NCBI GenBank assembly: GCA_947447955.1 | Contig: CANFLS010000012.1 | Span: forward strand, 2,946 to 66,945 | DNA length: 64,000 nucleotides | Reading direction: 5' to 3' | Source of the DNA: Flavobacteriales bacterium | GTDB lineage: Bacteria > Bacteroidota > Bacteroidia > NS11-12g > UBA955 | Part shown: in pieces, positions 6,356 to 40,333 of the stretch | Numbering within the stretch: the first letter of the stretch is position 1 | Layout of the letters: each line of letters begins with the position of its first letter | The notes under the pieces: model-generated | The model's input: the letters and a program-made list of their open reading frames with translations, nothing else | Databases searched by the model: none | Told to the model about the DNA's origin: nothing | Translations under genes and position numbers: made by a program

Positions 6356-6359
6356 GGTT

Positions 6360-9982: not shown

Positions 9983-12900
9983 TTGTTAATTCCAAAAACT
10001 TCCTTATTTTTACTTTTTCCTAATCATATGCGCAAAAACCCTACCCTAAGAACCATACAAAATTTAAAATCTTTGATTTTGATATTGTGTGTTTTTATGG
10101 GCAATTCAATAAAAGCGCAGTTAAACGGAAATTATACCATTGGAGGGGCATCGGGAGCCAACAACTATGCAACTTGGTCGGCATTTGCAACGGCTTATAA
10201 CACCAATGGGGTTTCAGGAAAAGTTACGGTTACTGTTTTATCAAACCAAAGAATAACATCGGCGGTTCAATTAACCCAACACGCCTCCTCACCCACCACG
10301 GCTACAAAACCCTTAATCATCAATGGCAACGGTTATAAAATAACAGGTAATTTTCTGTATGAAATGATCTATTTCAACGGCATTGATTATTGCACGTTAA
10401 AAAACCTTACCATTGTTGATTCATCAGCCAATAAGGCAATTGGAATAAGGCTTACAAATAATTCAAACGACAATTTAATAGACAGTTGCACCATCGTTTT
10501 TGCGGGATTGGCATCAACAGGCAGTGCCGATAATTGTGCCTATTTGGCACTTACAGCCTCAAACACCAATTTATCTTCGCTTGCAGCTCAAATAAACTGC
10601 AGCCGCTCAGTTTTTTCAAACAACATTTTCAAAACAAGCAATACCAATTCGCCAGGCCCAATGTTTGGAATATTAGAATTCCAAGCAGCAAGTTATACCA
10701 CTACTGCAATTAACAATAGCTATCAAAACAATGCAATTAGTAATTATTATTCAGTAGGTATTTCAATTAATTACACCAATGGTGTAATCATTCAAGGCAA
10801 CAAAATATCAAGAAATGATGCTACCTCTTTGTCGCCGATGGATACATTAACCAATGCCGCCATTAGGGTATCTCGAACGTATGAAAGTACTAGACTATCA
10901 TTTGTAAGTCAAAACATCATTGAGAATATCCCATTCAAAGGAGCCACTGGATCAAAACCCGGTAATTATTTGTTTAAATTTTTCGGCATCCAACTTAATT
11001 ATGTCAACAATGGATTTTTCAATTCCAAAAGATATAACCTAGAATGCCATGAAAATGTAATACAAAAAATAAATGCCAAAAATGTATTCAACGGTATTTA
11101 TCCCTCATTTTGTGTCAATTTAAAAATAAGGAAAAATATTATTCTGAATAATTACAGTTATCAAAACGCGAGTCCCATCTACTGTGCTTACAATTTAGGA
11201 CTTACCGAGGTAACCGAAAATCACGTAAAAACAAACAACTTTAATTCCCTCAATGGAAATACGGTATTTATTTGTTTCACTGCCAATAGCCAAACATTGA
11301 ATGACTCTTCCTTCGCCGCAAATAATCTGCTAGATTCCAATACAATTGGATCTGCTAGTTGTGGATTCTTATTGTCTAGTGAGAGATCTTCAATCTTACG
11401 TAATTCCATTTTAAACAATACCTTTCAAAATGGCACTAAAGATTACTATGGAATAAAATGCAGCAATTCTAGTATAAAAATCAATAGCAATTTGATTTTA
11501 AACAAAGGAGGATGTGGGAACTTTTATGCCATTCATCAAACCAACCCAAACAATAATTCCACCGAAATTACCCAAAACACCATTTATTTCAACGCAATTG
11601 ATACCACCAATTTTTGGGGGATTTATGTAACCAACGATGCCAATAAAATCCAAGGCAACATTATTCAAGCAAATGGCACAAACTCCGGTTATTTTATCAC
11701 GCTCATCAATCCTGCAAAAGCAACACCCGTAAACAACAACATGTATTTCGGGAAATTCACAAACTCCTATTGGCAGTTGTTTACCAATAAATACAATACG
11801 TTTAAACAATGGCAAAGCACAACGCTAGCTGGAAATAATGAACGCTTTGAAAATCCCAAATTCACCAATCCCAATTCCCTAAACTTCATACCCTTAAATA
11901 GCTATTGTCAAAATATTATGGCTCCCATTAAATATGCCACTTTCGATATTTACAACAATGCCAGAAATAAGAACTTAAGCGACATGGGTGCCATTGAATC
12001 AAGTATTGATTGCAAAGCAATTGGTTATAAATTTAACGTTCCTTCAAATGCTTGTGCAGGTACCCAATATGGACCTCTTACCATTTACGGAAAAAGCAAC
12101 TTCAATGATACAATTAACCAATTAAGCGTGGCTTTCAATGTGAACAACGCCAATGAAATTAATGAAATCATTACCCGTAAAATCAAACCCTACGATACCT
12201 TTTCATATACCTTCAACAACTACCCGAAGTTAATATCTACAGGCAAAAACACAATCAAAGTCTACATTCATCAAAATGACGACACATTATCAAACGACAC
12301 AGTTTCATTGAATGTGGTTACCATAAAATCTCCGGGTGGATCAACAGTTTCATTATTGGATAGCATAGTCAACAAAAACAAAACCATTTTAAAGAACAAT
12401 ACCATCATTACTTATAATGGATTAGAGACATTTTTCACCATTACCCCGCCGAGGAATTTGTCAAATTCAGATTATGGCATAAGCAACAAATGGTTTGCAA
12501 ATGCTGCGGTTTATTCAACATCAAACAAGATTATTTCGTCAACCGTTAATATTAATCCGCCAACCACTTCCAGTAACCTTATCATTGGTGTGAATGTAAA
12601 AGACTCTGCTTTTCAAGACAGCACAATATCCCTCAAAATCAAAATAGCAAATACAATTACAGGGTGCGATACCCTATATCAATTTCAACTAAAATTGCTA
12701 AAATTGCCAGATTTAAAAATCAACCACGGCAATAAAGTTTTCTGTTCTGGCGATACAATTTCATTTGACCATAACGGCATCAATTATCCAGAACAATTGA
12801 ATTATCACTGGAATTTTGGCACCAACAATAGTGCCGATACCTCTGCCGATTTATTTACAAAGTTTATCTATAAAAATGGTGGCGTATTTATTGTTTCGCT

Positions 12901-14497
12901 TACCGCGTATTTACCCAACATCCCATTCCAATTTTCAAGTTTCGACACCATCACTGTCAATACCAAACCTATTGTTAAATTCACTAAAGACAACGTTTGT
13001 CCCTCAGAACCATTGAAAATAAAAAACTTAACTGTGCCTTCCAATTCTAACATGTATTGGGACTTTAACGATGGTAAGGGATATATTCAAAAACAAGATT
13101 CCAGTTTTATGTTAACCATTAAAAATGCAGGCACTTACGTTTTTAGACTTAAAGCAAATAACAACGGTTGCATAGTTACGGCATCGCAAAATGTAAATAT
13201 TTTCGATGCGCCAACGGCTACTTTTTCGAAATTGTCTGGCAATTGCAACAATGAAAGTATCACCTATCAAAACAACTCTACAATTAAGAGCGGCAATCTA
13301 TATTTCAAATGGGAATTAGGAGAAAATAGCACCCTCAGTTTTGCCAAGAATCCGAGCATTAATTATTCATCGTCAGGGTATAAAAATGTAAAACTTACAG
13401 TGCGTTCTGATTTTGGTTGCGCTGATTCTTCTACCAAGTCAATTTACATAAAACCTGCACCTGTTGCGAACTTTACAAGTACCGATTTTTGTTTTATTCG
13501 ACCAACAGAATTTACAAATACAACTCCCAAAATACCTGGTAGTAAACCAACTTTTTTGTGGGATTTCGGAGGTGGCGACTTAAGTTACACCGAAAATGTT
13601 ACGCAAAGCTGGAATTCAGTGGGATTGAAAACTGTGACATTCAAAATCACCTTAGACAATGGCTGCTCCGACACCGTAAAACGTTATTTTTATGTACTCG
13701 AAGAAAGTACACCTAAATTTAACTTTACTTCTAAATGCTCAGGCGATACTACCCTTTTCAACAATAATTCTACCAATTCAAAAGGTACCCCCATGATTTA
13801 TAAATGGTACTTTGGCGATGGTGACTCATCTGAAAAAACAAACCCAATTCACATTTATAAAAATAGGTTTAACACTACCTATAATGTAAAATTAATCAGT
13901 CAAATAATTGATGGCTGCGCCACTTCGATAACAAAACCAGTCATAATAAATGGGCTTCCCAATACCTGCGGTTTTTTAGGTAATGCCGATTATGCCTTTG
14001 CCTTTTACGGAGTAAAATTAAATCCATTAGACGATAACGGTTTGGTTGGCGGAAGCAATGGCATTGATTATACTTGGACCGTCAATCAAAAAGACACCCA
14101 ATACAGCAAAGATGTAAACGCCATGGTAAACTATAATTTCAAAAAAGATACGTTTTATCTGGCATCAATGTTCGCAACCGACAGAAATACCGGTTGCAAA
14201 TGTACGAGAGAGAAACTGGTTATCATGAACAGGGCTACTGTTCAGAATTTGAACCAAGTTCAAATTTCAATTTCCCCAAATCCATCAACAGGTTTATTCA
14301 ATCTCAAATTGAATAAAAGCAATGCAAACTTGAAAGTTTACATCACCAATACAAATGGTCAGAAAATTCCAAGTCGTTTGATCCAAATAAATGATTCAAA
14401 TTACCAACTCGATTTGAAAGAAGAATCGAATGGGGTTTATTTTATGAAAATAACGGATACAAACTTTTCTAAGTTTGAAAAAATCACCAAGTATTAA
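9983..14497 (+). CDS. T9SS-secreted giant protein with right-handed beta-helix region, at least 5 PKD domains and a C-terminal T9SS sorting domain (likely start 10028, MRKNPTL...)
   Basis: Signal peptide. NxxI/GxxI parallel beta-helix repeats (NNAISNYYSVGISINYTNGVIIQGNKISRND). PKD repeats (HWNFGTNNSADTS..., YWDFNDGKGY..., KWELGENSTL..., LWDFGGGDLSY..., KWYFGDGDSSE...). C-terminal ...ISISPNPSTGLFNLKL...VYITNTNGQKI...GVYFMKI, the type-A CTD pattern. Confidence 0.8.
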   Translation: MLIPKTSLFLLFPNHMRKNPTLRTIQNLKSLILILCVFMGNSIKAQLNGNYTIGGASGANNYATWSAFATAYNTNGVSGKVTVTVLSNQRITSAVQLTQHASSPTTATKPLIINGNGYKITGNFLYEMIYFNGIDYCTLKNLTIVDSSANKAIGIRLTNNSNDNLIDSCTIVFAGLASTGSADNCAYLALTASNTNLSSLAAQINCSRSVFSNNIFKTSNTNSPGPMFGILEFQAASYTTTAINNSYQNNAISNYYSVGISINYTNGVIIQGNKISRNDATSLSPMDTLTNAAIRVSRTYESTRLSFVSQNIIENIPFKGATGSKPGNYLFKFFGIQLNYVNNGFFNSKRYNLECHENVIQKINAKNVFNGIYPSFCVNLKIRKNIILNNYSYQNASPIYCAYNLGLTEVTENHVKTNNFNSLNGNTVFICFTANSQTLNDSSFAANNLLDSNTIGSASCGFLLSSERSSILRNSILNNTFQNGTKDYYGIKCSNSSIKINSNLILNKGGCGNFYAIHQTNPNNNSTEITQNTIYFNAIDTTNFWGIYVTNDANKIQGNIIQANGTNSGYFITLINPAKATPVNNNMYFGKFTNSYWQLFTNKYNTFKQWQSTTLAGNNERFENPKFTNPNSLNFIPLNSYCQNIMAPIKYATFDIYNNARNKNLSDMGAIESSIDCKAIGYKFNVPSNACAGTQYGPLTIYGKSNFNDTINQLSVAFNVNNANEINEIITRKIKPYDTFSYTFNNYPKLISTGKNTIKVYIHQNDDTLSNDTVSLNVVTIKSPGGSTVSLLDSIVNKNKTILKNNTIITYNGLETFFTITPPRNLSNSDYGISNKWFANAAVYSTSNKIISSTVNINPPTTSSNLIIGVNVKDSAFQDSTISLKIKIANTITGCDTLYQFQLKLLKLPDLKINHGNKVFCSGDTISFDHNGINYPEQLNYHWNFGTNNSADTSADLFTKFIYKNGGVFIVSLTAYLPNIPFQFSSFDTITVNTKPIVKFTKDNVCPSEPLKIKNLTVPSNSNMYWDFNDGKGYIQKQDSSFMLTIKNAGTYVFRLKANNNGCIVTASQNVNIFDAPTATFSKLSGNCNNESITYQNNSTIKSGNLYFKWELGENSTLSFAKNPSINYSSSGYKNVKLTVRSDFGCADSSTKSIYIKPAPVANFTSTDFCFIRPTEFTNTTPKIPGSKPTFLWDFGGGDLSYTENVTQSWNSVGLKTVTFKITLDNGCSDTVKRYFYVLEESTPKFNFTSKCSGDTTLFNNNSTNSKGTPMIYKWYFGDGDSSEKTNPIHIYKNRFNTTYNVKLISQIIDGCATSITKPVIINGLPNTCGFLGNADYAFAFYGVKLNPLDDNGLVGGSNGIDYTWTVNQKDTQYSKDVNAMVNYNFKKDTFYLASMFATDRNTGCKCTREKLVIMNRATVQNLNQVQISISPNPSTGLFNLKLNKSNANLKVYITNTNGQKIPSRLIQINDSNYQLDLKEESNGVYFMKITDTNFSKFEKITKY

Positions 14498-25745: not shown

Positions 25746-28373
25746 TTACAGTCCCAATATTTCTTTTGCTTTTGCAATGGCATTGTCTAAGCCCGCTGCA
25801 TCTTTACCTCCCGCTGTAGCGAAGAACTTTTGTCCTCCCCCTCCCCCTTGGATAAATTTACCGCATTCTCTAACCATAGCTGATGCGTCCCAACCTTTTT
25901 CAGCCACCAAATTCTCTTCAATGTAAATGGCCAAGCCCGGTTTTTCATCTGCGGTATATCCTAAAATACATACCAGGTTAGGCAACTCTTGTTTCAATTG
26001 AAAACAAAGCTGTTTTGCGGCTTCTGCCGAAGGCAATTGCAAATTTGCCTGCACTATATTCAAACCGTTGCTTTGTTGCACAGACGACATTAATTCAGCC
26101 TTAATTTGTGCTATTTGAATGTTTTCAAACGATTCAATTTTCTTACTCAACTGATTGTTATCGGCAAATAACTTTTGAATTGCTTGTAAAATATCTTTGG
26201 GATTATTTAAGCACTCAGAAATTTCAGTCAACAATTGCAATTTTTCAGCAATGTAATTCATCGCTTTTTCATTGGTAATGGCTTCAATTCTTCTAACCCC
26301 AGCGCTCACACTTCCCTCAGAAATAAGTTTAAAGAACCCAATTTGTGAAGTATTGGCAACATGTGTTCCACCACAAAGTTCCATTGAATAAGCCCTATCA
26401 AATTCTATTACCCTAACAAAATCACCATATTTTTCACCGAAAAGCGCAGTAGCGCCCATGTCAATGGCATTTTGAATTGGAATATTTCTGTGTTCTAACA
26501 ATGCAATGCCCTCTTGGATTTTGGCATTTACCATGGTTTCAACTTGGGTAATTTCCTCATCGGTCATTTTGCCAAAATGAGAAAAGTCAAAACGCAAACT
26601 TTCATCGTTCACTAAACTTCCCTTTTGTGCAACGTGTGTTCCCAAAACCCTTTGCAAAGCACTGTGCATCAAATGTGTGGCACTGTGATTGGCAGATATT
26701 TTCAATCGGCGGTGTTCGTTCACTTTTGCAGTAAATGATTGTGAAGGATTTTTAATTGCTTGATTTGAAATCAATATATGCAATTTGTTTTCCTTGGTTG
26801 TATCTACAATTTGAATGGTTTCGCCATCTTCGCCAACCAAAATACCTGTATCACCAACCTGTCCACCACTTTCTGCATAAAACGGACAAACATCCAACAC
26901 AATTTGGGTGATGTTCTTCCCTTTTACCGTAACTGATCTATGTCTAGAAATAAGTGTGTTGCACTCGGTTTTGTCGTATCCAACAAAACTCTCCTCCAAA
27001 GATTCATAAACCACTTGCCAGTCGCCAGTTTCTTTTTGTGCATCGGCTTTACTTCTTTGCTTTTGCTCGTTAAGCAATTTCTCAAAGCCTGCAATATCAA
27101 TATCAATTGACTTTTCACGGGCAATAACCTCGGTCAAATCAATTGGAAAACCATACGTATCATAAAGTTCAAATGCCATTTCACCAGAAATTCCTTTGTT
27201 CGGATTTTCATTAAAATAAGCGGTTAATTTACCCATACCCAAACTCAATGTTCTAAAGAAAGAAATTTCCTCTTCTTTAACAACACGTTGAATGAATGCC
27301 AATTGACTGTTTAATTCTGTAAACGAATTTGCAAAATAAGCTGCCAAATCTGCCAACAATTCATGCATGAACGGCTCATTGAAACCCAAATAGCTATACC
27401 CATAACGAACAGCCCTACGCAAAATTCTACGAACCACATAACCAGCTCCGTTGTTGGCTGGCAATTGTCCATCGGCAATACACATACTCACCGCACGGAT
27501 ATGGTCGGCAATTACCCTAAAGGCAATGTCTTGAGCTTCGTTATCGCCGTAATTTTTGCCACATAAACTGGCAGTTTTTTGAATGATAAATTGGAAAATA
27601 TCTGTATCGTAATTCGACGATTTACCTTGAATTACCCTAACCAAACGCTCAAATCCCATTCCGGTATCAACATGCTGAGCAGGAAGTTTTTCCAAAGAGC
27701 CGTCGGCCTTTCTGTTAAACTCCATGAACACGTTATTCCAAATTTCAATCACTTCAGGATTGTCTTTATTTACCAATGTGGCGCCATCCACTTTTGCGCG
27801 GTCTTCATCAGAACGCATATCAAAATGGATTTCGGTGCAGGGTCCACAAGGACCGGTATCGCCCATTTCCCAAAAATTGTCTTTTTTATTTCCGTTGATT
27901 ATTTTTGATTTATCAATGCGGGCAGCCCAAATATCGTAAGCTTCTTGATCGAAGTGGATATTAGCGGCTTCGTCTCCCTCAAAAACAGATACATACAAAC
28001 GGTCTTTGTCTAGTCCATACACTTCGGTGAGAAGTTCCCACGCCCAAGCAATGGCATCGGCTTTAAAATAATCGCCAAAGCTCCAGTTACCGAGCATTTC
28101 GAACATAGTATGGTGGTAATGGTCGTGCCCTACCTCATCCAAATCGTTATGTTTTCCGCTTACTCTCAAACATTTTTGGCTATTGGCAACACGTTTTTGC
28201 GTGGCCACGGCGTTTCCTAAGAAATAATCTTTAAATTGATTCATACCGGCGTTGGTAAACATCAACGTAGGATCTCCTTTCACCACAATGGGTGCAGAAG
28301 GAACAATGCGGTGATTTTTGCTTTCGAAAAACGCTAAAAACTTTGCCTTAATTTCTTGAGATGTAAGTGACAT
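25746..28373 (-). CDS. alaS: alanine--tRNA ligase
   Basis: 875 aa. N-terminal ...FTNAGMNQFKD class-II motif. HSATHLMH and C-terminal DHHA1-type GGGG region. Confidence 0.95.
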   Translation of the reverse strand: MSLTSQEIKAKFLAFFESKNHRIVPSAPIVVKGDPTLMFTNAGMNQFKDYFLGNAVATQKRVANSQKCLRVSGKHNDLDEVGHDHYHHTMFEMLGNWSFGDYFKADAIAWAWELLTEVYGLDKDRLYVSVFEGDEAANIHFDQEAYDIWAARIDKSKIINGNKKDNFWEMGDTGPCGPCTEIHFDMRSDEDRAKVDGATLVNKDNPEVIEIWNNVFMEFNRKADGSLEKLPAQHVDTGMGFERLVRVIQGKSSNYDTDIFQFIIQKTASLCGKNYGDNEAQDIAFRVIADHIRAVSMCIADGQLPANNGAGYVVRRILRRAVRYGYSYLGFNEPFMHELLADLAAYFANSFTELNSQLAFIQRVVKEEEISFFRTLSLGMGKLTAYFNENPNKGISGEMAFELYDTYGFPIDLTEVIAREKSIDIDIAGFEKLLNEQKQRSKADAQKETGDWQVVYESLEESFVGYDKTECNTLISRHRSVTVKGKNITQIVLDVCPFYAESGGQVGDTGILVGEDGETIQIVDTTKENKLHILISNQAIKNPSQSFTAKVNEHRRLKISANHSATHLMHSALQRVLGTHVAQKGSLVNDESLRFDFSHFGKMTDEEITQVETMVNAKIQEGIALLEHRNIPIQNAIDMGATALFGEKYGDFVRVIEFDRAYSMELCGGTHVANTSQIGFFKLISEGSVSAGVRRIEAITNEKAMNYIAEKLQLLTEISECLNNPKDILQAIQKLFADNNQLSKKIESFENIQIAQIKAELMSSVQQSNGLNIVQANLQLPSAEAAKQLCFQLKQELPNLVCILGYTADEKPGLAIYIEENLVAEKGWDASAMVRECGKFIQGGGGGQKFFATAGGKDAAGLDNAIAKAKEILGL

Positions 28374-28400
28374 AATTAGAGTGCAAAGATAAACAAAAAA

Positions 28401-28449
28401 GGTTAGACGGATTAGACAGATTAGACAGATTAGACGGATTAGACAGATT
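28401..28449 (+). repeat. GATTAGACR 9-bp tandem repeat x5
   Basis: ggttagacg gattagaca gattagaca gattagacg gattagaca seen directly. Confidence 0.9.
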
Positions 28450-28480
28450 TTTGGGTTTTTGAAAATTAAACAGGCGCAGC

Positions 28481-28578
28481 CGTAAACAGCGAAGCGTCAA
28501 CAGCATAGCGTAAACTACCGAAGGTGTAAACCGCGAAGCGTAAACTTGCGAAGCAATCTAAACGCACGAAGTGCCTCA
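28481..28578 (+). repeat. degenerate 14-16-bp GCGAAGCGTAAAC-type module run
   Basis: cgtaaacagcgaagcgtcaacagcatagcgtaaactaccgaaggtgtaaaccgcgaagcgtaaacttgcgaagcaatctaaacgcacgaagtgcctcat. Related modules recur at 31.2, 34.9, 36.2, 38.9, 39.7 and 56.5 kb. Confidence 0.8.
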
Positions 28579-28699: not shown

Positions 28700-30040
28700 A
28701 TGTACATTCAAAGAACAATTGATACAGATCTTATACTTTGGAAAAATGCAGAACAGCGTAAACCTCTTTTAATTAGAGGAGCAAGACAAGTTGGCAAATC
28801 AACTGCTGTAAGAAATTTAGCAAAGGATTTTAAGTCCTTCATAGAAATCAATTTTGACGAAGAACCGCTTTTAAGAAACCTTTTTGAGAATATTAAATCG
28901 ATTGAAGAATTATTAGAACAACTCGCAATCATCTATCAAACTCCTATAATTGAGGGAGAAACACTAATTTTTCTTGATGAAATTCAAGCCTGCCTAACAG
29001 CAATTTCATTATTGAGATATTTTTATGAAAAAAAACCATATATCCATATCATTGCCGCTGGGTCACTTTTGGAATTTGCATTAACCGAATTGCCGTCTTT
29101 TGGCGTAGGTAGAATTCGATCTATCTTTATGTATCCATTGTCTTTCAATGAGTTTCTCATAGCAATGAACGAATCTCAATTGCTAAAATTATTAGAAAAA
29201 TCAGATAGCCAAAACCCCGTAAGTCCCATACTACATGAAAAATTGAAGCTCTATTTAAAGAAATTTTTTATTATTGGAGGGATGCCAGAAGCTGTGAACG
29301 CCTATGTGCAAAGGAAAGATTTAATTGAAGTTCAAAGAATTTTAGACGATTTAGTTATTTCAATTCAAGCAGACTTTAGTAAATACAATAAAAGAATCTC
29401 TGTTCATCGAATCCAATCAGTTTTTGAGAATCTGATTCAACAAGTTGGTTCCAAATTCAAATATTCAAGTCACTACAGCGAATTAAATGGAATACAAGTG
29501 AAACAGGTGGTTGATTTATTGGAATTGGCGGGATTGGTACATTCTGTTACTCACTCCTCTTGTAACGGAATTCCATTGGGTGCAGAATCAAATATGAAAA
29601 AACGCAAATTTCTCATTTTCGATACTGGAATTTTCCAAAGAATCTTAGGGTTAGATGTTTCATCTCTCCTATTAAATAATGAATACCAAGTTATTAATAA
29701 GGGAAACATTGCAGAGTTATTCATTGGGCTCGAATTAATAAAAACAAATTCGCCATATGAAAAATCGCCTTTATATTATTGGCATAGAGAGTCAAAAAGT
29801 AGTCAAGCTGAAGTTGATTATGTAATACAAAAGGGCGAACAAATCATTCCCATTGAAGTAAAGTCAGGAACAAAGGGAACAATGCAAAGTTTACATATTT
29901 TCATGGCAGAAAAATCTATAAATGTAGGTGTAAGATGTTCATTAGAGAATTTCGGCACAATTAACAATATAAAAATTCTGCCTTTGTATGCGATTAGTCA
30001 ATTAAGAATGGATTATCCCGAAAGCTTTCGGGAGGATTAG
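28700..30040 (+). CDS. AAA-family ATPase with DUF4143-type C-terminal domain (COG1373-like)
   Basis: Walker A LLIRGARQVGKST. Walker B LIFLDEIQ. About 440-aa architecture typical of this family. The last 10 codons (…MDYPESFRED*) are encoded by the palindromic repeat element. Confidence 0.7.
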   Translation: MYIQRTIDTDLILWKNAEQRKPLLIRGARQVGKSTAVRNLAKDFKSFIEINFDEEPLLRNLFENIKSIEELLEQLAIIYQTPIIEGETLIFLDEIQACLTAISLLRYFYEKKPYIHIIAAGSLLEFALTELPSFGVGRIRSIFMYPLSFNEFLIAMNESQLLKLLEKSDSQNPVSPILHEKLKLYLKKFFIIGGMPEAVNAYVQRKDLIEVQRILDDLVISIQADFSKYNKRISVHRIQSVFENLIQQVGSKFKYSSHYSELNGIQVKQVVDLLELAGLVHSVTHSSCNGIPLGAESNMKKRKFLIFDTGIFQRILGLDVSSLLLNNEYQVINKGNIAELFIGLELIKTNSPYEKSPLYYWHRESKSSQAEVDYVIQKGEQIIPIEVKSGTKGTMQSLHIFMAEKSINVGVRCSLENFGTINNIKILPLYAISQLRMDYPESFRED

Positions 30041-30043
30041 ACG
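30011..30043 (+). repeat. Palindromic dispersed element copy 1 (GGATTA-TCCCGAAAGCTTTCGGGA-GGATTAGAC) inside the ATPase 3' end
   Basis: 18-bp perfect palindrome at 30016-30033. Other copies are at 30146-30163, 38939-38956 and 40388-40405. Confidence 0.85.
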
Positions 30044-30181
30044 GATTAGACGGGTTAGACAGATTGGGTTTAGATGCGTAAACGCGTTTAGATGGCTTCG
30101 CCGTTTAGAAGACCTAAAGGTAGTTTAGACGGATTAGACGGATTATCCCGATAGCTATCGGGAGGGTTAGACAGATTGGGT
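30036..30181 (+). repeat. Mosaic repeat block (GATTAGACR units, tttagatgcgtaaacgcgtttagatgg, palindromic element copy 2 at 30141-30173)
   Basis: gattagacggattagacgggttagacagattgggtttagatgcgtaaacgcgtttagatgg...ggattagacggattatcccgatagctatcgggagggttagacagattgggtttag. Confidence 0.85.
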
Positions 30182-30700
30182 TTAGTTTTTGAAAAAATAC
30201 TCTTTTGTTTCCCAAAATTTGACAGTATTGTAATTCAGTTTGTGGCCCAATTTATTTTGATTGATTGGCTTACACTTTTTCAAAACAAATTTGAGACATT
30301 CATTTTCAAATTCTGAGTACATCCAACCGATTATTATCGTTTGTTTTTTTTTGTTATAATATCCCGTAGGAAGAATGAACGCAGAATCTAATTTACATTT
30401 TTTAGTAATCAACCCAATATCATAAATTGTATCGTTATCGGAATATCCTTTTATTATGGTTAAAACTAAACTATCTTTCTCAAGATAGCTTCCTGTTGAG
30501 CACAATGAACGAAAGTGAACGGATGACTTAATCACTTTTGAATCTATTATTTTGTTCACTATATCACCTTTTAAATCTTGGGGTTCCGATAATTTATCTT
30601 CCCAATTTTGAGCAAAAGAATTTACTGGGAAAAAAAGCACCAGGAAAATGATGGATATTAACTTTGACATAGTATTTAATTGGGGAACATTTTCTGTCAT
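30182..30700 (-). CDS. hypothetical secreted protein (probable start about 30670, MSKLISIIF...)
   Basis: Signal peptide ...FPVNSFAQ. AT-rich. No recognisable domain. Confidence 0.4.
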   Translation of the reverse strand: MTENVPQLNTMSKLISIIFLVLFFPVNSFAQNWEDKLSEPQDLKGDIVNKIIDSKVIKSSVHFRSLCSTGSYLEKDSLVLTIIKGYSDNDTIYDIGLITKKCKLDSAFILPTGYYNKKKQTIIIGWMYSEFENECLKFVLKKCKPINQNKLGHKLNYNTVKFWETKEYFFKN

Positions 30701-30783
30701 CGTTACAAATCTAATTCAACAATGCATTGTTAACGTTGACCCATTCTGCTAAAGCAGTTTACTAATTGTTTTTTCTCGCGGGG

Positions 30784-30978
30784 TTAAGACCCCATACCAT
30801 CTCTAAAAATGATTGCCAAACTACTAAAATAAAGCAATAGGGAAAGTAGAAATGCTAACACTAACCCTATTATTATTCTTTCGGCTTTCTTATAACTGCT
30901 ATACTTGAATACCAAAGGAACAATTAACAACGGTGTTGTGAACATCACGAACCATAATATTTGACCAAGTATATGCAT
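30784..30978 (-). CDS. small hypothetical 2-TM membrane protein (64 aa)
   Basis: Two hydrophobic helices. Clean start and stop. Low confidence that it is expressed. Confidence 0.3.
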   Translation of the reverse strand: MHILGQILWFVMFTTPLLIVPLVFKYSSYKKAERIIIGLVLAFLLSLLLYFSSLAIIFRDGMGS

Positions 30979-31084
30979 AATTTACCACCAATCACCATCT
31001 AAACTATTTCTATTCTTATTGTAGAATTGGAACCCTTTTTAAATTCACTCATAAACTATTAGATTATCACCATAAGGCGCCCCC

Positions 31085-31127
31085 ATTTCTTGATATGTAA
31101 GTGACATAATTAGAGTGTAAAGATAAA
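31085..31127 (+). other. About 43-bp duplicate of the alaS start codon, first 6-7 codons and -7 promoter region (direct repeat of 28351-28393)
   Basis: atttcttgaTatgtaagtgacataattagagtgTaaagataaa versus atttcttgaGatgtaagtgacataattagagtgCaaagataaa at the native alaS start. Confidence 0.85.
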
Positions 31128-31146
31128 TTAAAAGTTAATTAGAAAG

Positions 31147-31316
31147 TTTGTAAGAGTTTATAGAAGTTTATGAGCGTTTATAAAGGTTGGCTGGGCAAAA
31201 AAAATAAACAGCGAAGCGTCAACTACCGGAGGTGTAAACCGCCAAAGGCGTCAACGAGCGAAGCTCTTCTATACGCACGAAATGCCCAAAACCGGCGAAG
31301 CCCTAAACATTTGAAG
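31147..31316 (+). repeat. Composite repeat element: 4 x 10-bp GTTTATAARR-like units, GGCTGGG-A-run, then GCGAAGCGTCAAC-type modules
   Basis: An about 80-bp core (gtttataaaggttggctgggcaaaaaaaataaacagcgaagcgtcaactaccggaggtgtaaaccgccaaaggcgtcaac) is nearly identical to 36196-36280. Confidence 0.85.
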
Positions 31317-31381
31317 TTTATTTTATATAAATTAATTGGCTTGATTATCATAAATTCAGACATCTCTGTTTTTTAGCTTAG

Positions 31382-31915
31382 CTATTTTTGAGGGACAATA
31401 GACTGTTTTTTCTCATTTATAAAATTTACAAACTGATTAAATCTTTCATTATCTATATTAAATGCAAAAATTTGCAAGGAAATTAAAATTTTATTATAAT
31501 TTCCTACAGAATAAAAATCCAAACTGCCATTATAATTTAAATTTTCGAAATTTCCGGTTGAATTAACCATAATTAATTCAAATCCATCAAACTTCAATTT
31601 AACTTGTTCAACTCCAAAAACAACATATTTTTCATCAAAAAAATGACCTTTTTCTATTTGAATATCCTCCTTAAATTCTAATTTTAAGAGCTTACAAAAA
31701 CCTGTGTTTACATAATTTTTGTATGGAATTATCAATAATAGAAAACTAAAAATAGCCGAATTAATTATCGCAATTATTTTGAAAAAAATTGCCAAATCAA
31801 AAGGACTAGAAGAGTAAATTATAAATGATATTATTGTCAAAACTATCGAACATGGACAAATTATTAAAACAGCCCATAGACTAACCTGGATTTTATTAAT
31901 CTTAATAAATCGCAT
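31382..31915 (-). CDS. hypothetical membrane protein (3 N-terminal TM helices plus soluble C-terminal domain)
   Basis: 177-aa ORF. Very AT-rich. No recognisable motif. Confidence 0.35.
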   Translation of the reverse strand: MRFIKINKIQVSLWAVLIICPCSIVLTIISFIIYSSSPFDLAIFFKIIAIINSAIFSFLLLIIPYKNYVNTGFCKLLKLEFKEDIQIEKGHFFDEKYVVFGVEQVKLKFDGFELIMVNSTGNFENLNYNGSLDFYSVGNYNKILISLQIFAFNIDNERFNQFVNFINEKKQSIVPQK

Positions 31916-32027
31916 AATTTAAATTACAAACATTTCTCATACAGCCTTTCAAATGTTGAAAGTCTAATTTTTATGCATTTTATCATCACCGGAAATGAGA
32001 AATAATTGAACACGAAGCAAATACCCG

Positions 32028-32636
32028 TTAAAGACCTTCAGCGAAAATTTCTTGCTTTAACTGAAAACTGGAGCATTGACGAACTTGAGCATAATTTGAA
32101 TCGACAAATACAATATCTAAAAGAATATTATTGAGATAATATCTCTTCGCAGCAAATAACTCAATGTATTTTTTGAAATCCACGTTGAGTACGTTTAAGT
32201 GAGGTATATCTTCGAAAATTTTACTTTCAATCAAACCTTCATAAATCAACGAATCTTTGGTGTTAAGCTTATTTATGATTGATTCTTTAGTATTTTCCAT
32301 TATCGGACTTAATGTAAAACTCATTAGGATTTTCACTTTGGGTTGTGGCTTTTTGTATACCATTGTATCAAAAACCTTACCATACAAGCTTGAAAATCGC
32401 ACACTTAAATTGAACGATGTAGGTGAAATCAACTTATAGTGCCCTACCGTATTATCTTTAAAATTTAGAGTATCAAAATTACTGAACTTCATTAAAATTG
32501 AATCAATTTCAATAGGATAAGCAATAAATTTAGACACGGGAACTTGGGTTTTAGAAATTTGTGCCGTCGCAGTAAATGACAAAAGTCCAATCAATAAAGT
32601 TAAAACAATTATCTTTTTCATTTTTTTAATGTACAA
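32028..32636 (-). CDS. hypothetical secreted protein
   Basis: Signal peptide (LSFTATAQ). 202 aa. No recognisable motif. Confidence 0.4.
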   Translation of the reverse strand: MYIKKMKKIIVLTLLIGLLSFTATAQISKTQVPVSKFIAYPIEIDSILMKFSNFDTLNFKDNTVGHYKLISPTSFNLSVRFSSLYGKVFDTMVYKKPQPKVKILMSFTLSPIMENTKESIINKLNTKDSLIYEGLIESKIFEDIPHLNVLNVDFKKYIELFAAKRYYLNNILLDIVFVDSNYAQVRQCSSFQLKQEIFAEGL

Positions 32637-32738
32637 TGTTGTAAGTGGAAATAATCAGAATTATGTGACTCGACCCAAACAGAGGAGGTATTGATATTGT
32701 TATTATTGTTCATTTTCAAAAGTACAAATTCCGTCACT

Positions 32739-33347
32739 TTACTCAGGCAAATTCTTAATGGTTTCCTTTAACCCTTCGAAAAAATCAACATCAACGCCCT
32801 TCTTTTCCTGCAATAACTCGATTTCTTTTATGACTATTTCGACATTGATATACCTTGCTTTTGTAAAAAACAAATCGGCATTCGCTTCTTTATCAGAAGG
32901 ATGTTCTAAAATATAAGACTCTATTTCCGTCACAACTTCATTAAAACAACTATCCCTTCTATGCGTGTTACCTTCAACTTCAAAAGCCAGTGCTTTGAAA
33001 GTTTTTAAATACAAGTTCTTTTTATACGACTTAGAAAAGTCGTTGATGCTTAATAAATTAACCACCCCATATGCTTTTTTATAATCATGCAATAACATAA
33101 ATGCTGTTAATTTTAATTCGGTAAGTTTGATTTTATATTCTGAACAAATTGACGAATTTTCGTCAGTGAATTTTATTAACTGATTCAAACAACTATCATT
33201 TTTTGTTACATAATATTCATTTATTTTATTATTAGCCTGATTATAAAGAGTTTTACAATCATTGATACTAATCATTTTAGGCTGACCATTGCAAGTAAAA
33301 TTCAATAACACTAAAACGAAAAAACTTAATCTTTGTATAACTTTCAT
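32739..33347 (-). CDS. hypothetical secreted/lipoprotein, candidate polymorphic-toxin immunity protein
   Basis: Signal/lipobox-like N-terminus (VLVLLNFTCNGQ). Its start codon lies 8 bp after the stop of the RHS-core remnant. Confidence 0.35.
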   Translation of the reverse strand: MKVIQRLSFFVLVLLNFTCNGQPKMISINDCKTLYNQANNKINEYYVTKNDSCLNQLIKFTDENSSICSEYKIKLTELKLTAFMLLHDYKKAYGVVNLLSINDFSKSYKKNLYLKTFKALAFEVEGNTHRRDSCFNEVVTEIESYILEHPSDKEANADLFFTKARYINVEIVIKEIELLQEKKGVDVDFFEGLKETIKNLPE

Positions 33348-33355
33348 TGTTTCAC

Positions 33356-33580
33356 CTATTGTAAATGTCCAACTTTGTTTAAATATGGATTATTTCTCAC
33401 TGCATTGTATGGTGTTAAGCTCTTTCTTTCGTCTGTTTTCGGATCCACATTCCACCTTCTTCCTAATCTACCATCATACTCCCAAAATGTGGCGGTATAT
33501 GTTTCGTTGTTGTATACTTCTTTGTCTTTTTCTTGCGTGTTAAATCCAAACCTAAACCCGCTTCCAGCGCTGAAACTTCG
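33356..33580 (-). pseudogene. Remnant of an RHS/YD-repeat core C-terminus (no start codon, in-frame stop upstream)
   Basis: Own translation of the minus strand: SFSAGSGFRFGFNTQEKDKEVYNNETYTATFWEYDGRLGRRWNVDPKTDERKSLTPYNAVRNNPYLNKVGHLQ*. It matches the RHS core end motif (…YDxxxGRxxxxDP…PYxYxxNNP…) but stops before the usual DPxG cleavage site and toxin tip. Confidence 0.55.
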
Positions 33581-33672
33581 GTTTTTTATGAACTACCAAA
33601 AGTAGATGGGTTGTGGAGGTAGTTTAAGGGATAGTTGAACACGATTAGCGCTTTTTACTTTGTAATTTGAGA

Positions 33673-34374
33673 TCAATAAATTATATGCTTAAACTTGCCT
33701 TTGTATAACTCCAAGTATTTGGGCTTAAAACAATAGTGAACTTTACATTTATTCTTGCGCTTTTTATTTTTAAAGTATAATTCAAATTTATAAATGTAGG
33801 TGTAAATTTCATTAGTTTTCTTTGTGAAATTATTATATTGAGTACCGGATTCTTTGAAATTTAAATCACTTGCATCGCAAGGAAAGGTTTTAGAGTTGTA
33901 ATAATAACCAATTCGAATTGACATTGATTTAGAAGATAAGTATAAAGCTTTAGTTTTGAATAAAAAATAGTTTTTAATAAAATTAAAATCCCCAATTACT
34001 AAAGAATCAATATGATCCATCTTATTTGCATAATAAATTTTATCATATTCATTCTTATTCGCAGTTACTTCTTTGATTGTCAATGTATCCGTTTCGGGGC
34101 AGTATCTTACTTCAATTTTAGTTTGATTTTCGGCTGTTTCTAAAACAATTTTATCATTGTAATATTTAATAATATTTGAGTATTCTGCTGCACTTTGAAT
34201 GGATAACTTTTTCTTTTTTTCAGCCGGATCTTCATATCTAATGATTAAACAACTATCGGTTTTTTCCATAAACAAACGTTGAGGGGTCATAGTATCGTAG
34301 GGTTTTACAAAAACTTGACCTACAGATAAATTCAATTTGATGCTGAGAAATATGAATAATGTTATTTTTTTCAT
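33673..34374 (-). CDS. hypothetical secreted protein
   Basis: Signal peptide (…LSVGQ). 233 aa. Lys/Tyr/Asn-rich. No motif. Confidence 0.4.
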   Translation of the reverse strand: MKKITLFIFLSIKLNLSVGQVFVKPYDTMTPQRLFMEKTDSCLIIRYEDPAEKKKKLSIQSAAEYSNIIKYYNDKIVLETAENQTKIEVRYCPETDTLTIKEVTANKNEYDKIYYANKMDHIDSLVIGDFNFIKNYFLFKTKALYLSSKSMSIRIGYYYNSKTFPCDASDLNFKESGTQYNNFTKKTNEIYTYIYKFELYFKNKKRKNKCKVHYCFKPKYLELYKGKFKHIIY

Positions 34375-34713: not shown

Positions 34714-34968
34714 AGTTTAGATGCGTAAACACCTAAAGGTTGATTAGACAGATTAGACGGATTAGACGGATTAGACGGATTAGACGGATTAGACGGATTA
34801 GACGGATTAGACGGATTGGGTTTAGAGAAACTAAAGGTAGTTTAGATGTTGTTTTCTAATTCCAATAGAAAATCTAAACGCATGGCAATGCTTCTAAACC
34901 CTAAACGAGCGAAGCTCTTCTCAACGCACGAAGTGCCTCATCGATTTGTATTTTTATCATTTGATATC
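34714..34968 (+). repeat. Mosaic repeat block with a GATTAGACR x8 array (34742-34813)
   Basis: tttagatgcgtaaacacctaaaggtt-gattagaca-(gattagacg)x7-gattgggtttag...ctaaaggtagtttagatg...ctaaacgcatggcaatg...ctaaacgagcgaagctcttctcaacgcacgaagtgcctcat...ttgtatttttatcattt. Confidence 0.9.
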
Positions 34969-34983
34969 TTTTCTATAGGCAAT

Positions 34984-35054
34984 GAGCCGATTAAATTTAA
35001 AAATCGGCTCATTTTTTGCGTATATTTGAGCCGATTAAACCCACAAATCGGCTC
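34984..35054 (+). promoter_or_regulatory. Twin near-identical stem-loops/palindromes (GAGCCGATT-N9-AATCGGCTC) x2 immediately upstream of fic
   Basis: gagccgattaaatttaaaaatcggctc at 34984-35010 and gagccgattaaacccacaaatcggctc at 35028-35054. The second ends 1-2 nt before the fic ATG. Confidence 0.6.
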
Positions 35055-35055
35055 A

Positions 35056-36162
35056 ATGAAATACAATTGGCAACAAATTGACTGGCCCAACTTCAGCTTT
35101 AACACAGCGAAAATAGATCACTTATTACTTGATTTTATTCGCAATTCTGGCAAACTAGAGGGCGCTTTAGAAACACTAACTGAAAATAATCAATCAGAAA
35201 CTATCATTGAACTATTGGTAATTGAAGCAATTAAAACATCCGAAATTGAAGGTGAATATTTAAGTAGAAAAGATGTGGCTTCTTCCATCCGGAAAAATTT
35301 GGGCTTACTTAAAACCACTGAGAATATAAAAGATCAAAAAGCCCGAGGTATTGCTGAATTGTTGATAATGGTCCGGAATAGTTATTACAAACCATTGGCA
35401 AAAAAAGAATTACTCAATTGGCATAAATCGTTAATGAGTCATGACCCGACAATTCAGTCAGGTGAATGGCGCGAACATGAAGAACCGATGCAAATTATTT
35501 CAGGCGCATTAGGAAAAGAAAAAATTCATTTTGAAGCGCCACCGTCAAAAAATGTCCCTCAAGAAATGGAACAATTCTTTCAATGGTTTAATGGTACAGC
35601 GCCGAATCAACCCAATGAAATCATACATGCACCAATTCGGGCTGCAATTGCACATCTTTATTTTGAAAGTATTCATCCGTTTGAAGATGGAAATGGACGT
35701 ATTGGTAGAGCACTTGCAGAAAAAGCTTTGGCACAAACTTTAGGATATAATCCACTAATTAGTTTATCGTCAACAATAGAACTAAATAAAAAGGAATACT
35801 ATTATTATTTGGAAAGAGGTCAACGAAAAAACGAAATTACGGAATGGATAGAATATTTCGTAAACACAATATTGCATGCTCAAGAATTTACACAAAAACT
35901 CATTCATTTCACCATTCAAAAAACACAAATCTTCGATACTTTTTCAACACAACTCAACGAGGCGCAATTGAAGGTGGTAAAGCGTATTTTAGAGCAAGGT
36001 CATGAGGGATTTATTGGTGGTATGAATGCGGAAAAGTATATGCGCATATCAAAGGTTTCAAAAGCAACAGCTACCAGACATTTACACCAACTCGTTGAAA
36101 TTGGTATCTTTCAAATTGAAGGGAAAGGAAGAGCCACGAGGTATCGTATTAATGTTAATTAG
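35056..36162 (+). CDS. Fic/DOC-family protein (DUF4172 N-terminus, class II TxxxEG inhibitory motif, C-terminal wHTH)
   Basis: MKYNWQQIDWPNF start. TSEIEGE. Fic motif HPFEDGNGRIGR. C-terminal HTH (KATATRHLHQLVEIGIF). The ORF-track N-terminal extension back to 34846 is a translation of repeats and is rejected. Confidence 0.8.
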   Translation: MKYNWQQIDWPNFSFNTAKIDHLLLDFIRNSGKLEGALETLTENNQSETIIELLVIEAIKTSEIEGEYLSRKDVASSIRKNLGLLKTTENIKDQKARGIAELLIMVRNSYYKPLAKKELLNWHKSLMSHDPTIQSGEWREHEEPMQIISGALGKEKIHFEAPPSKNVPQEMEQFFQWFNGTAPNQPNEIIHAPIRAAIAHLYFESIHPFEDGNGRIGRALAEKALAQTLGYNPLISLSSTIELNKKEYYYYLERGQRKNEITEWIEYFVNTILHAQEFTQKLIHFTIQKTQIFDTFSTQLNEAQLKVVKRILEQGHEGFIGGMNAEKYMRISKVSKATATRHLHQLVEIGIFQIEGKGRATRYRINVN

Positions 36163-36164
36163 AA

Positions 36165-36322
36165 GGTTTATAAGCATTTATAAAAGTTTATGTGCGTTTA
36201 TAAAGTTTGGCTGGGTAAAAAAACAAACAGCGAAGCGTCAACTACCGGAGGTGTAAACCGCCAAAGGCGTCAACCGCCAAAGGCGTCAACTACCGCAGGT
36301 GTAAACCCACCGTAGGTGTAAA
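36165..36322 (+). repeat. Composite repeat element (4 x 10-bp GTTTATAARR units, GGCTGGG-A-run, 16-bp GYGTMAAC-N-CCRNAG units x about 6)
   Basis: ggtttataagcatttataaaagtttatgtgcgtttataaagtttggctgggtaaaaaaacaaacagcgaagcgtcaactaccggaggtgtaaaccgccaaaggcgtcaaccgccaaaggcgtcaactaccgcaggtgtaaacccaccgtaggtgtaaac. Confidence 0.85.
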
Positions 36323-38847: not shown

Positions 38848-39058
38848 GGCTTCGCCTGTTGACACCTACGGTAGTTTACACCTTCGGTAGTTTAATTTAG
38901 GCACTCAACTCAGATATCTGTCTAATCCGTCTAACCCTCCCGATTGCTATCGGGATAACCTGTCTAATCCCGAAAAGTTTACGCTTCGCTGTTTAATTAA
39001 ACCTAAAATCTATCAACAAAAAATCTGTCTAATCTGTCTAACCCGTCTAATCTGTCTA
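38848..39058 (-). repeat. Mosaic repeat block in reverse orientation (GTCTAATC units, palindromic element copy 3 at 38928-38965)
   Basis: ...ggtagtttacaccttcggtagttt...atatctgtctaatccgtctaaccctcccgattgctatcgggataacctgtctaatccc...tctgtctaatctgtctaacccgtctaatctgtctaatccc. The last unit supplies the msrA stop codon. Confidence 0.85.
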
Positions 39059-39715
39059 ATCCCTTTTATACTTTTTCATATACTCCTCAAACTTCTTCAC
39101 CTTTTCCCCCACCACATAAATGCAGTACGGTTGCTCAGGATTGTTTTCAAAGTAGTTTTGGTGATAGTCTTCGGCGTCGGAATATTTTTCTACGGGTAGA
39201 ATTTCTGTTACAATTTTACCGTCCCACAGTTTGGCATCTTCTGCAGCTTTTAAGCTGTATAAAGCAAGTTCCTTTTGTTCGTTGTTGCGATAATAAATGC
39301 CACTTCGATATTGGGTTCCTTCGTCGTTGCCTTGTTTATTCAAAGTTGTAGGATTATGAATACGCCAGAAAACGGTTAGAATTTCTGCAAATGAGGTTTT
39401 GGTAGTATCGAACATGATTTTCACCACTTCCACACAACCTGTATAGCCTGAGCAGACTTCGCGGTAGGTAGGATTGGCAATTTTACCATTGCTGTATCCA
39501 CTCACCACATTCAATACTCCTGGCAAACGTCTGTAAACGGCATCTAGACACCAAAAGCAACCACCACCCAACACGCAAGTGTCAACTTTGGTTGGATCAA
39601 TTTCATTTGAATTTTCCATGTTTTTTTTGTTTGTGCTTTCTACCAAAGAGGAATTCTTACTCCCACAAGATAAAAAACCGATTGAAATGATAAATATAAA
39701 TATGTTTTTTAACAT
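39056..39715 (-). CDS. msrA: peptide-methionine (S)-S-oxide reductase MsrA (lipoprotein form)
   Basis: Lipobox (IGFLSCGSK). GGGCFWCLDAVY catalytic motif. Confidence 0.9.
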   Translation of the reverse strand: MLKNIFIFIISIGFLSCGSKNSSLVESTNKKNMENSNEIDPTKVDTCVLGGGCFWCLDAVYRRLPGVLNVVSGYSNGKIANPTYREVCSGYTGCVEVVKIMFDTTKTSFAEILTVFWRIHNPTTLNKQGNDEGTQYRSGIYYRNNEQKELALYSLKAAEDAKLWDGKIVTEILPVEKYSDAEDYHQNYFENNPEQPYCIYVVGEKVKKFEEYMKKYKRD

Positions 39716-40212: not shown

Positions 40213-40333
40213 GGGTTAGAAGGGTTAGACCGATTAGACGGATTAGACAGATTGATTGTGATTAGACAGATAAATTTGAATAGGCAGATAAATATTTAAA
40301 AAATCTAAATCGATTTTAGATAAACGATAAACA
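40213..40333 (+). repeat. Mosaic repeat block (GGTTAGA/GATTAGACR units and others)
   Basis: gggttagaagggttagaccgattagacggattagacagattgattgtgattagacagataaatttgaataggcagataaat... Confidence 0.8.

Follow-up and report, generated by a model that had tools for sequence, protein, structure and literature searches.

The stretch of DNA considered here, called the window in what follows, is 64,000 nucleotides (64 kb) long. Its minus strand carries, at 30182..34374, an array of co-oriented small secreted or membrane ORFs of 233, 202, 197, 177, 64 and 172 aa without family assignment. The array has a GC content of 29.5% vs 36.3% for the whole window, and searches of all its ORFs against Pfam and NCBIfam gave no informative matches. 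A toxin link could be established for only two of them, the 202-aa and 197-aa ORFs. The 233-, 177-, 64- and 172-aa ORFs belong to no family and lack relatives beyond this population, except for a weak match (E 4e-4) of the 172-aa ORF to an ORF lying just downstream of an RHS-CT in contig L019; for the 233-aa ORF, no relatives were found among the fetched loci or the JGI metagenome contigs. The neighbours of the array are an AAA_14/DUF4143 ATPase and, on its flank, a DUF4172-Fic gene identified by Pfam (34846..36162, plus strand), with 81.5% nucleotide identity to positions 5747-6921 of the related contig L101. No integrase, recombinase or integrative-element families were found among the flanking ORFs in Pfam and NCBIfam searches. 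A DUF4172-Fic gene lies beside RHS orphan/immunity arrays in three contigs, namely the window (34846-36162, plus strand), L101 (5739-6848) and L095 (2122-3228). It adjoins the array in L095-97, and the flanking housekeeping genes differ among the three contigs; the Fic gene could belong to a mobile or recombining island or have a functional link with the array.

Between the 233-aa and 202-aa ORFs, a minus-strand frame is open from 33592 to 33359 (78 codons) and reads FIKNRSFSAGSGFRFGFNTQEKDKEVYNNETYTATFWEYDGRLGRRWNVDPKTDERKSLTPYNAVRNNPYLNKVGHLQ. It is bounded by an in-frame TAG upstream (33595-33593) and a TAG downstream (33358-33356). Reading-frame inspection of 33592-33359 revealed no in-frame ATG or TTG on this strand, and the internal GTG codons at 33448-33446 and 33400-33398 would yield 30 aa at most. 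Only 8 nt (GTGAAACA, 33355-33348) separate its stop from the ATG of the 202-aa ORF at 33347. The original prediction of a start-less segment with an in-frame stop upstream, followed 8 nt later by the 202-aa ORF, is thus borne out by the coordinates, with 78 codons counted from 33592 instead of the 74 claimed from 33580.

Comparison with L007, L101 and the related tail ORFs P0001-P0003 points to a 1-nt deletion (TCA[A]TAAA, near 33589) just inside this upstream boundary. The DNA alignment with L007 places the deletion site at 33587..33590 (minus strand), where the window reads TCA-TAAAAA vs TCAATAAA in relatives, and the same lesion is found in assemblies L001-L006. The bounding TAG at 33595-33593 and the frame switch of the 12-15 tail codons upstream (…NYLHNPSTFGSS) both follow from this loss. 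The 5′ piece of the remnant (33590..33636, minus strand) precedes the frameshift; translated in the relatives' frame, it gives NYLHNPSTFGSS, and it aligns with P0001-P0003 (…PKSNPFGSS…). Detectable homology to other orphan modules begins with this piece, and blastn homology to L101 begins at 33600. The main piece (33386..33589, minus strand) runs as IKNRSF…FWEYDGRLGRRWNVDP…TPYNAVRNNP and ends just before the DPxG position; the remnant shows homology to the final ~70 residues of the RHS shell, including the first ...R-W-x-V-D-P element. It had been envisaged that frameshift correction might uncover a long upstream ORF and hence an intact gene. Such an ORF is absent: the corrected frame gains about 22 codons, back to where the preceding 233-aa ORF stops, and still lacks a start codon. 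A copy-number polymorphism of an AAC (Asn) codon was also observed around 33500-33510, YNNE in the window and YNNNE in six near-identical assemblies (L001-L006), which looks like trinucleotide slippage within the population.

The RHS nature of the segment is revealed by its relatives more clearly than by profile searches. No Pfam match was obtained for 33592-33359, and the NCBIfam model TIGR03696 (Rhs_assc_core) aligned over positions 15-68 of 76 with E=6.4e-4 and 20.2 bits, below its curated cutoff of 32.5 bits. A protein search with the tail returned only seven short relatives; a scan of one genome per species with an alignment of these seven then yielded 382 relatives, almost all in Bacteroidota. 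According to the tail HMM, giant ORFs of 2600-3700 aa have this element some 200-300 residues before their end, and many tandem ORFs of about 300-400 aa open with it, the classic layout of a main gene followed by an orphan array. DUF6443 and YD/RHS repeats are present in the giant ORFs, whose tails reach 27-29 bits against TIGR03696. An 833-aa protein of L101 with a Pfam RHS_repeat match (24.9 bits, above the cutoff of 22) continues directly into the tail, and this tail is 83.5% identical to that of the window at the nucleotide level. Relatives with a canonical tail score 42-61 bits on TIGR03696. One of them, in L093, is joined to the same toxin as described below and reaches 61.5 bits; a PDB sequence search with it retrieved the shell ends of TccC3, YenC2, RHS2 and mosquito SGS1 (E down to 3e-13). 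Same-toxin relatives align to residues 2046-2153 of TccC3 and 594-703 of YenC2; no match was obtained when the PDB was searched by sequence with the 833-aa RHS fragment of L101. The tail is contiguous with a YD/RHS-repeat shell in close homologues, and the window copy is devoid of a shell. The proposed similarity to the end of an RHS core is therefore supported through relatives, the profile check itself being weak, and the segment can be classified by its sequence as an RHS shell tail of a divergent Bacteroidota subtype (FWEYDGRLGRRWNVDP). No second tail copy, other RHS ORF or full-length RHS gene was found within the 64-kb window.

The 202-aa gene downstream (32739..33347, minus strand) is intact. 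Its N-terminus looks like a lipoprotein signal (…LLNFTC…), and every residue invariant in the family is kept in the window copy, among them the lipobox cysteine (C19) and three further cysteines. Homologues of its product (P0009-P0020) share 51-76% amino acid identity with it and lie behind a DDWV-type toxin domain. In L093, L094, L098/99, L100 and L101, the homologue starts 4-13 nt past the toxin-domain gene. The partner domain is about 220 aa long (…DDWVKN..TGEYEWMDNV…PQTFKHSWTFPTR, then the stop) and is joined to the RHS tail through NNPINRIDP(T/N)G. Outside the window, it is always found together with the family of the 202-aa protein. Since this linkage is conserved in five other lineages, the 202-aa protein appears to be the cognate immunity protein of that toxin domain, and its gene thus the immunity gene of the toxin that was deleted here. 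The tight spacing had suggested a toxin/immunity partnership at the outset, and this proposal is strengthened by homologues lying directly 3′ of one toxin domain in these lineages. The dN/dS ratios of the gene against five homologues range from 0.13 to 0.28 (0.23 vs L101, 0.24 vs the other toxin-less allele in L095-97), values indicative of purifying selection. The cognate toxin is absent from the 64-kb window apart from 8 out-of-frame codons, which makes the 202-aa gene a candidate orphan immunity gene.

Structure prediction gives some further insight into this pair. The AlphaFold model of the 202-aa protein (pLDDT 87) is an all-alpha TPR-like repeat, and a fold search with it returned generic TPR matches only (best E 9e-3, TM at most 0.5), with no specific PDB match. 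The toxin domain, which has no Pfam family, is modelled as an all-beta fold with pLDDT mostly 75-95 over the domain, and the fold search of its model gave no significant PDB match. A faint resemblance to the pore-stem structures of CDTb and iota-Ib (TM 0.17) was not relied on. The models would be compatible with a cassette pairing an all-beta toxin domain, possibly acting on the envelope, with a TPR-like lipoprotein as immunity protein.

Detailed insight into the fate of the toxin was obtained by comparison with an intact counterpart, P0023, encoded at 8852-9805 of L101. Its sequence (MPTPTPKYRPYYYPFGSSLNTRSFSTGSGFRFGFNTQEKDKEIYNNYETYTATFWEYDGRLGRRWNVDPEADERESLTPYNSMSNNPINRIDPNGQLDDWVQ…FKQSWTFTKR, then the stop) has the same FWEYDGRLGRRWNVDP tail, continued by INRIDPNG and the toxin domain, and is followed after 4 nt by a 202-aa gene whose product is 76% identical to that of the window. 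Two collinear blastn blocks were found, one matching window 33600-33386 to L101 8894-9112 (82.6% identity), the other window 33384-32726 to L101 9772-10431 (84.3% identity). The 659 bp in between (L101 9113-9771, that is 219 codons plus 2 nt) are unmatched in the window. The junction of this out-of-frame deletion lies at 33384..33386 (minus strand) from the blastn alignment with L101, the DPxG site and about 219 toxin codons being gone. Beyond the junction, a 3′ remnant of the toxin gene persists at 33348..33383 (minus strand), with FKQSWTFT at 33383-33360 and then a degenerate stop and spacer. The +2 frame of the window reads S-I-FKQSWTFT-IGET-MK, in which FKQSWTFT matches the last codons of the toxin exactly; it is also the top tblastn match of the P0023 toxin domain in the window, with 8/8 residues identical. 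In the tail frame, the same nucleotides read YLNKVGHLQ and then a stop.

The original prediction held that the DPxG autoproteolysis site and the toxin had been replaced by a KVGHLQ tip. The missing part stands: the window reads NNPYLNKVGHLQ and then a stop, vs NNPINRIDPNG or NNPINRIDPTG in intact relatives, so that the terminal DPxG expected after ...NNPI... is lacking, and this motif is located inside the 659-bp deleted stretch. The replacement part does not hold. Because the 3′ end of the toxin gene is retained in the +2 frame across the deletion, KVGHLQ is no new tip; according to the L101 alignment, it is a deletion by-product that results when the 8 final toxin codons (FKQSWTFT) are read in the wrong frame. 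A MAFFT pairing of NKVGHLQ with a toxin-internal NRIGYIA was likewise dropped, in view of this match to the 3′ end of the toxin gene in another frame. The deletion junction adjoins short repeats that are imperfect (CAATTAA and CATTTAA in L101), and a slippage-type deletion would fit them.

A comparable scar is seen at the next gene of the array. The ORF at 32028..32621 (minus strand) encodes 197 aa from the ATG at 32621, its start in the ORF list being the TTG at 32636. Its product shares 68% amino acid identity with the one encoded at L101 4706-5299, a gene located 3 nt downstream of the 833-aa RHS protein. No toxin lies ahead of it in the window. The corresponding blastn block (window 32661-32020, L101 4665-5307) reaches 41 nt into the end of the L101 833-aa RHS ORF, and the stretch at 32622..32661 (minus strand) is the 3′ remnant of a second, different RHS toxin gene, …HLQHCTLKK-stop vs …HLHLQKCTL-stop in L101. 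This second orphan immunity gene thus keeps only about 14 codons of the 3′ end of its own toxin. From these alignments, the locus can be described as an array with at least two orphan immunity genes bearing toxin scars.

The deletion junction and the frameshift are not restricted to one assembly. Both are found in at least 6 independent assemblies (L001-L006), which come from different samples and pipelines (NCBI MAG, ENA, Logan) and are about 99.6% identical to the window, from which their tails depart by one AAC codon only. When JGI metagenome contigs were scanned for exact matches to the junction sequence, 0 were obtained. In L007, an identical deletion junction and the beginning of this immunity gene follow another upstream gene, and the tail frame there has an ATG and 97 unbroken codons (P0001). 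Relative to the window tail, all 16 substitutions and one codon indel of L007 fall in the 5′ half, the 3′ half being identical, and the tail dN/dS between the two is 0.09. This mosaic is read as a gene-conversion tract that would have been imported from functional tails, and not as decay in place. A second toxin-less allele is observed in L095-97, where the tail is truncated after …SDFRF and continues in frame with the immunity ATG. The 5′ boundary of the module (..P.KSNPFGSS..) is common to P0001-P0003 and to the arrays of L008 and L015. These two related contigs (L008 at 112-1436 and 4606-5496, L015 over the whole contig) carry tandem orphan modules with other unannotated toxin tips. One such tip, a hydrophobic CT resembling a glycine zipper, precedes a 140-aa membrane protein. 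A further module has a canonical DPDG tail behind the same ..SNPFGS.IKSRSYSAGSGFRF 5′ boundary, and tail subtypes therefore appear to be shuffled.

As a module, the locus shows short core homology at its start, without any N-terminal or shell region; this homology begins at about 33636-33600, about 40-75 nt past the stop of the preceding ORF. The cognate immunity gene is present, and the variable C-terminal toxin domain is absent but for the 8 out-of-frame codons. The segment appears to be a pseudogene because it has no start codon and a frameshift, and because both lesions, the deletion and the frameshift, are common to at least 6 assemblies. The reading we favor, with a probability of roughly 0.88, is that it represents the toxin-deleted leftover of an orphan RHS module beside its intact immunity gene. 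The original module would have consisted of an RHS shell tail, the DPxG site and a toxin domain of ~220 aa, followed by the immunity gene. The out-of-frame deletion of 659 bp brought the tail, up to ...RNNP, next to the 8 terminal toxin codons, with loss of DPxG and of the whole toxin, and a separate 1-nt deletion broke the tail frame further upstream.

What would maintain such a locus can be pictured as follows. The immunity gene may have been kept to protect the envelope or periplasm against the same toxin delivered by RHS proteins of neighbours, as an orphan-immunity strategy, with the purifying selection on the gene as indirect support. It would be transcribed with the array by read-through from upstream, since no terminator lies between it and the upstream 233-aa ORF. 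Scans for sigma-70 promoters, terminators and the Bacteroidetes TAnnTTTG motif performed no better than chance, and they revealed no terminator-like site between these two genes. The tail stump would be devoid of coding function and might still offer a homology stretch for cassette recombination with other RHS tails, a role in line with the occurrence of the L007 junction behind a different upstream gene and with the confinement of substitutions to the 5′ half of the tail. A bolder extension is that toxin-less cassettes made of an RHS-tail handle and an immunity gene form a maintained, recombination-competent unit for trading immunity genes between RHS loci without toxins. This is rather unlikely in our opinion; it would be in line with the identical deletion allele of L007, with the mosaic that gene conversion would have left in the tail, and with a further toxin-less allele of independent origin.

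The original prediction saw in this segment a recombination scar of C-terminal displacement, in which an incoming CT-immunity cassette would have recombined in the RHS core, KVGHLQ-stop being the junction and the toxin tip being swapped for unrelated sequence. Orphan modules headed by a core tail are indeed abundant in relatives and do arise in this way (PMC10539506; PMC5361080), and the mosaic seen in the tail's 5′ half when L007 and the window are compared goes in the same direction. Displacement is thus retained as the process that probably created the orphan module originally. As an account of the toxin loss, it looks improbable: the sequence past the junction is not foreign, being the 3′ end of the partner toxin of the very same immunity gene, and the two flanks align collinearly with a single intact module of L101. 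The absence of a full-length RHS gene or second tail from the 64-kb window also speaks against it, and leaves nothing there on which the displacement junction could be mapped, as had been proposed. On the blastn alignment with L101, the missing toxin is due to a later internal deletion of 659 bp, not to a displacement junction.

Two further explanations deserve consideration beside that of a toxin-deleted leftover. The tail fragment could encode a functional small protein, such as the 97-aa product of L007 (P0001), acting as a regulator, a decoy or a chaperone-binding peptide. The ATG and uninterrupted 97-codon frame of L007 would suit it, and ATG-started short tail ORFs recur (P0001-P0003). 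The AAC indel polymorphism is in frame, and the low tail dN/dS (0.09) between the two deletion alleles could also mean that the tail peptide is under selection. Yet the window and the six near-identical assemblies are frameshifted and without a start, the last 8 residues of the fragment stem from out-of-frame reading past the deletion, and the short tail ORFs terminate at unrelated positions. The substitutions, moreover, lie in one half only, which fits imported gene-conversion tracts over selection in place, and a functional small protein appears therefore very improbable. Least credible of all is an artefact of assembly or sequencing (a collapsed repeat or a chimeric MAG contig) mimicking the deletion and the frameshift. 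The sequence does come from a metagenome-assembled genome, and RHS tails, as repeats, are prone to misassembly, but an identical junction and frameshift were recovered in independent assemblies from different samples and pipelines. The junction is found again in the other context of L007, and the window has a single tail copy.

Orphan rhs-CT/rhsI modules of Enterobacteria were reportedly linked to C-terminal displacement by Jackson in 2009, and are said to have been treated by Poole in 2011 and Koskiniemi in 2014. Such modules and their displacement are a known precedent (PMC10539506). As in these modules, the one described here opens with a short piece of RHS core, providing homology for recombination, followed by a tightly linked immunity gene, and its relatives are found in tandem arrays downstream of giant RHS genes. 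Unlike them, it has lost its toxin CT, which precludes the re-arming by recombination seen in Salmonella; no full-length rhs gene is nearby in the window, and the tail subtype (FWEYDGRLGRRWNVDP) falls below the TIGR03696 cutoff.

Arrays of orphan immunity genes retaining the 3′ ends of displaced effectors have been described in the T6SS clusters of Vibrio cholerae (Kirchberger 2017, PMC5361080). The two situations share immunity genes kept without their effector, each behind a short 3′ effector remnant (PMC5361080). They differ in that the toxins of the window are borne by RHS proteins and are not VgrG/PAAR-linked T6SS effectors, belong to another phylum and have no adjacent secretion-system genes. 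The window also keeps both the 5′ handle and the 3′ end, which allows a simple internal deletion to be pinpointed. Closer in phylogeny, the AID clusters of gut Bacteroidales contain pseudogenised remnants (Ross 2019, bioRxiv 10.1101/471110). Like them, the present Bacteroidota locus stacks orphan immunity genes and pseudogenised remnants, in an array that is AT-rich vs its surroundings. In contrast to the AID and rAID clusters, no integrative-element or recombinase genes were seen beside it; its immunity genes derive from RHS modules and not from the T6SS pairs of Bacteroides fragilis, and it comes from the MAG of an uncultured member of the Bacteroidota and not from a gut isolate. In structural terms, the remnant is homologous to the C-terminal region of RHS/Tc-toxin shells with their aspartyl autoprotease, as known from the structures of TccC3, YenC2 and RhsA. 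It differs from these in the lack of the second DPxG, which marks the cleavage site, of everything beyond it and of the upstream shell, so that neither folding nor cleavage would be expected.

A decayed orphan RHS CT-immunity module in an orphan-immunity array is hence a type of locus already known, and the toxin and immunity families alone are uncharacterised; the current understanding of RHS systems is unchanged by this case. Its value lies in the resolution at the base-pair level of how an RHS module would give rise to an orphan immunity gene, the two flanks of the deletion being preserved and an intact sister allele available, and in the extension of the orphan-immunity pattern to RHS arrays of uncultured Bacteroidota. 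It also pairs two unannotated families, an RHS toxin domain of ~220 aa predicted to be all-beta and a TPR-like lipoprotein of 202 aa, as a testable couple. For annotation, start-less RHS-tail ORFs beside small secreted genes can be regarded as pseudogene remnants, and their neighbours as candidate immunity genes.

Some other features of the window may be mentioned. A tandem repeat with a 9-bp unit (GATTAGACG / GATTAGACA) in up to about 9 copies occurs in intergenic DNA at 28401-28449, 30035-30144, 34742-34817, 38915-39061 (minus strand) and 40223-40253; its two-unit (22-nt) pattern gives 20 matches, the chance expectation being 0. Copies of the repeat lie on the flanks of the ATPase gene, the array and the Fic gene, and near msrA too. 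A dispersed intergenic repeat of about 100-200 bp, with 87-92% identity between copies, is found at 28351-28540, 31085-31290 and 36151-36312, with a piece at 34904-34962. It brackets the DUF4143 ATPase gene, splits the small-ORF array and trails the Fic gene, and may be a MITE or REP-like element, or mark insertion boundaries. A match of the tail to the ORF at 3446-6355 (weak tblastn and HMM, E 1.6e-4) was rejected as chance or compositional similarity, as it corresponds to the SusC-type TonB receptor motif FGSPLGRALNIDP. This region (3446-7874, plus strand) encodes a pair made of a SusC-like TonB receptor, with its Plug domain, and SusD, the SusC motif FGSPLGRALNIDP being the source of the spurious RHS-tail match. 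Further on, a 1504-aa protein with a T9SS C-terminal sorting domain is encoded at 9983-14497 on the plus strand.
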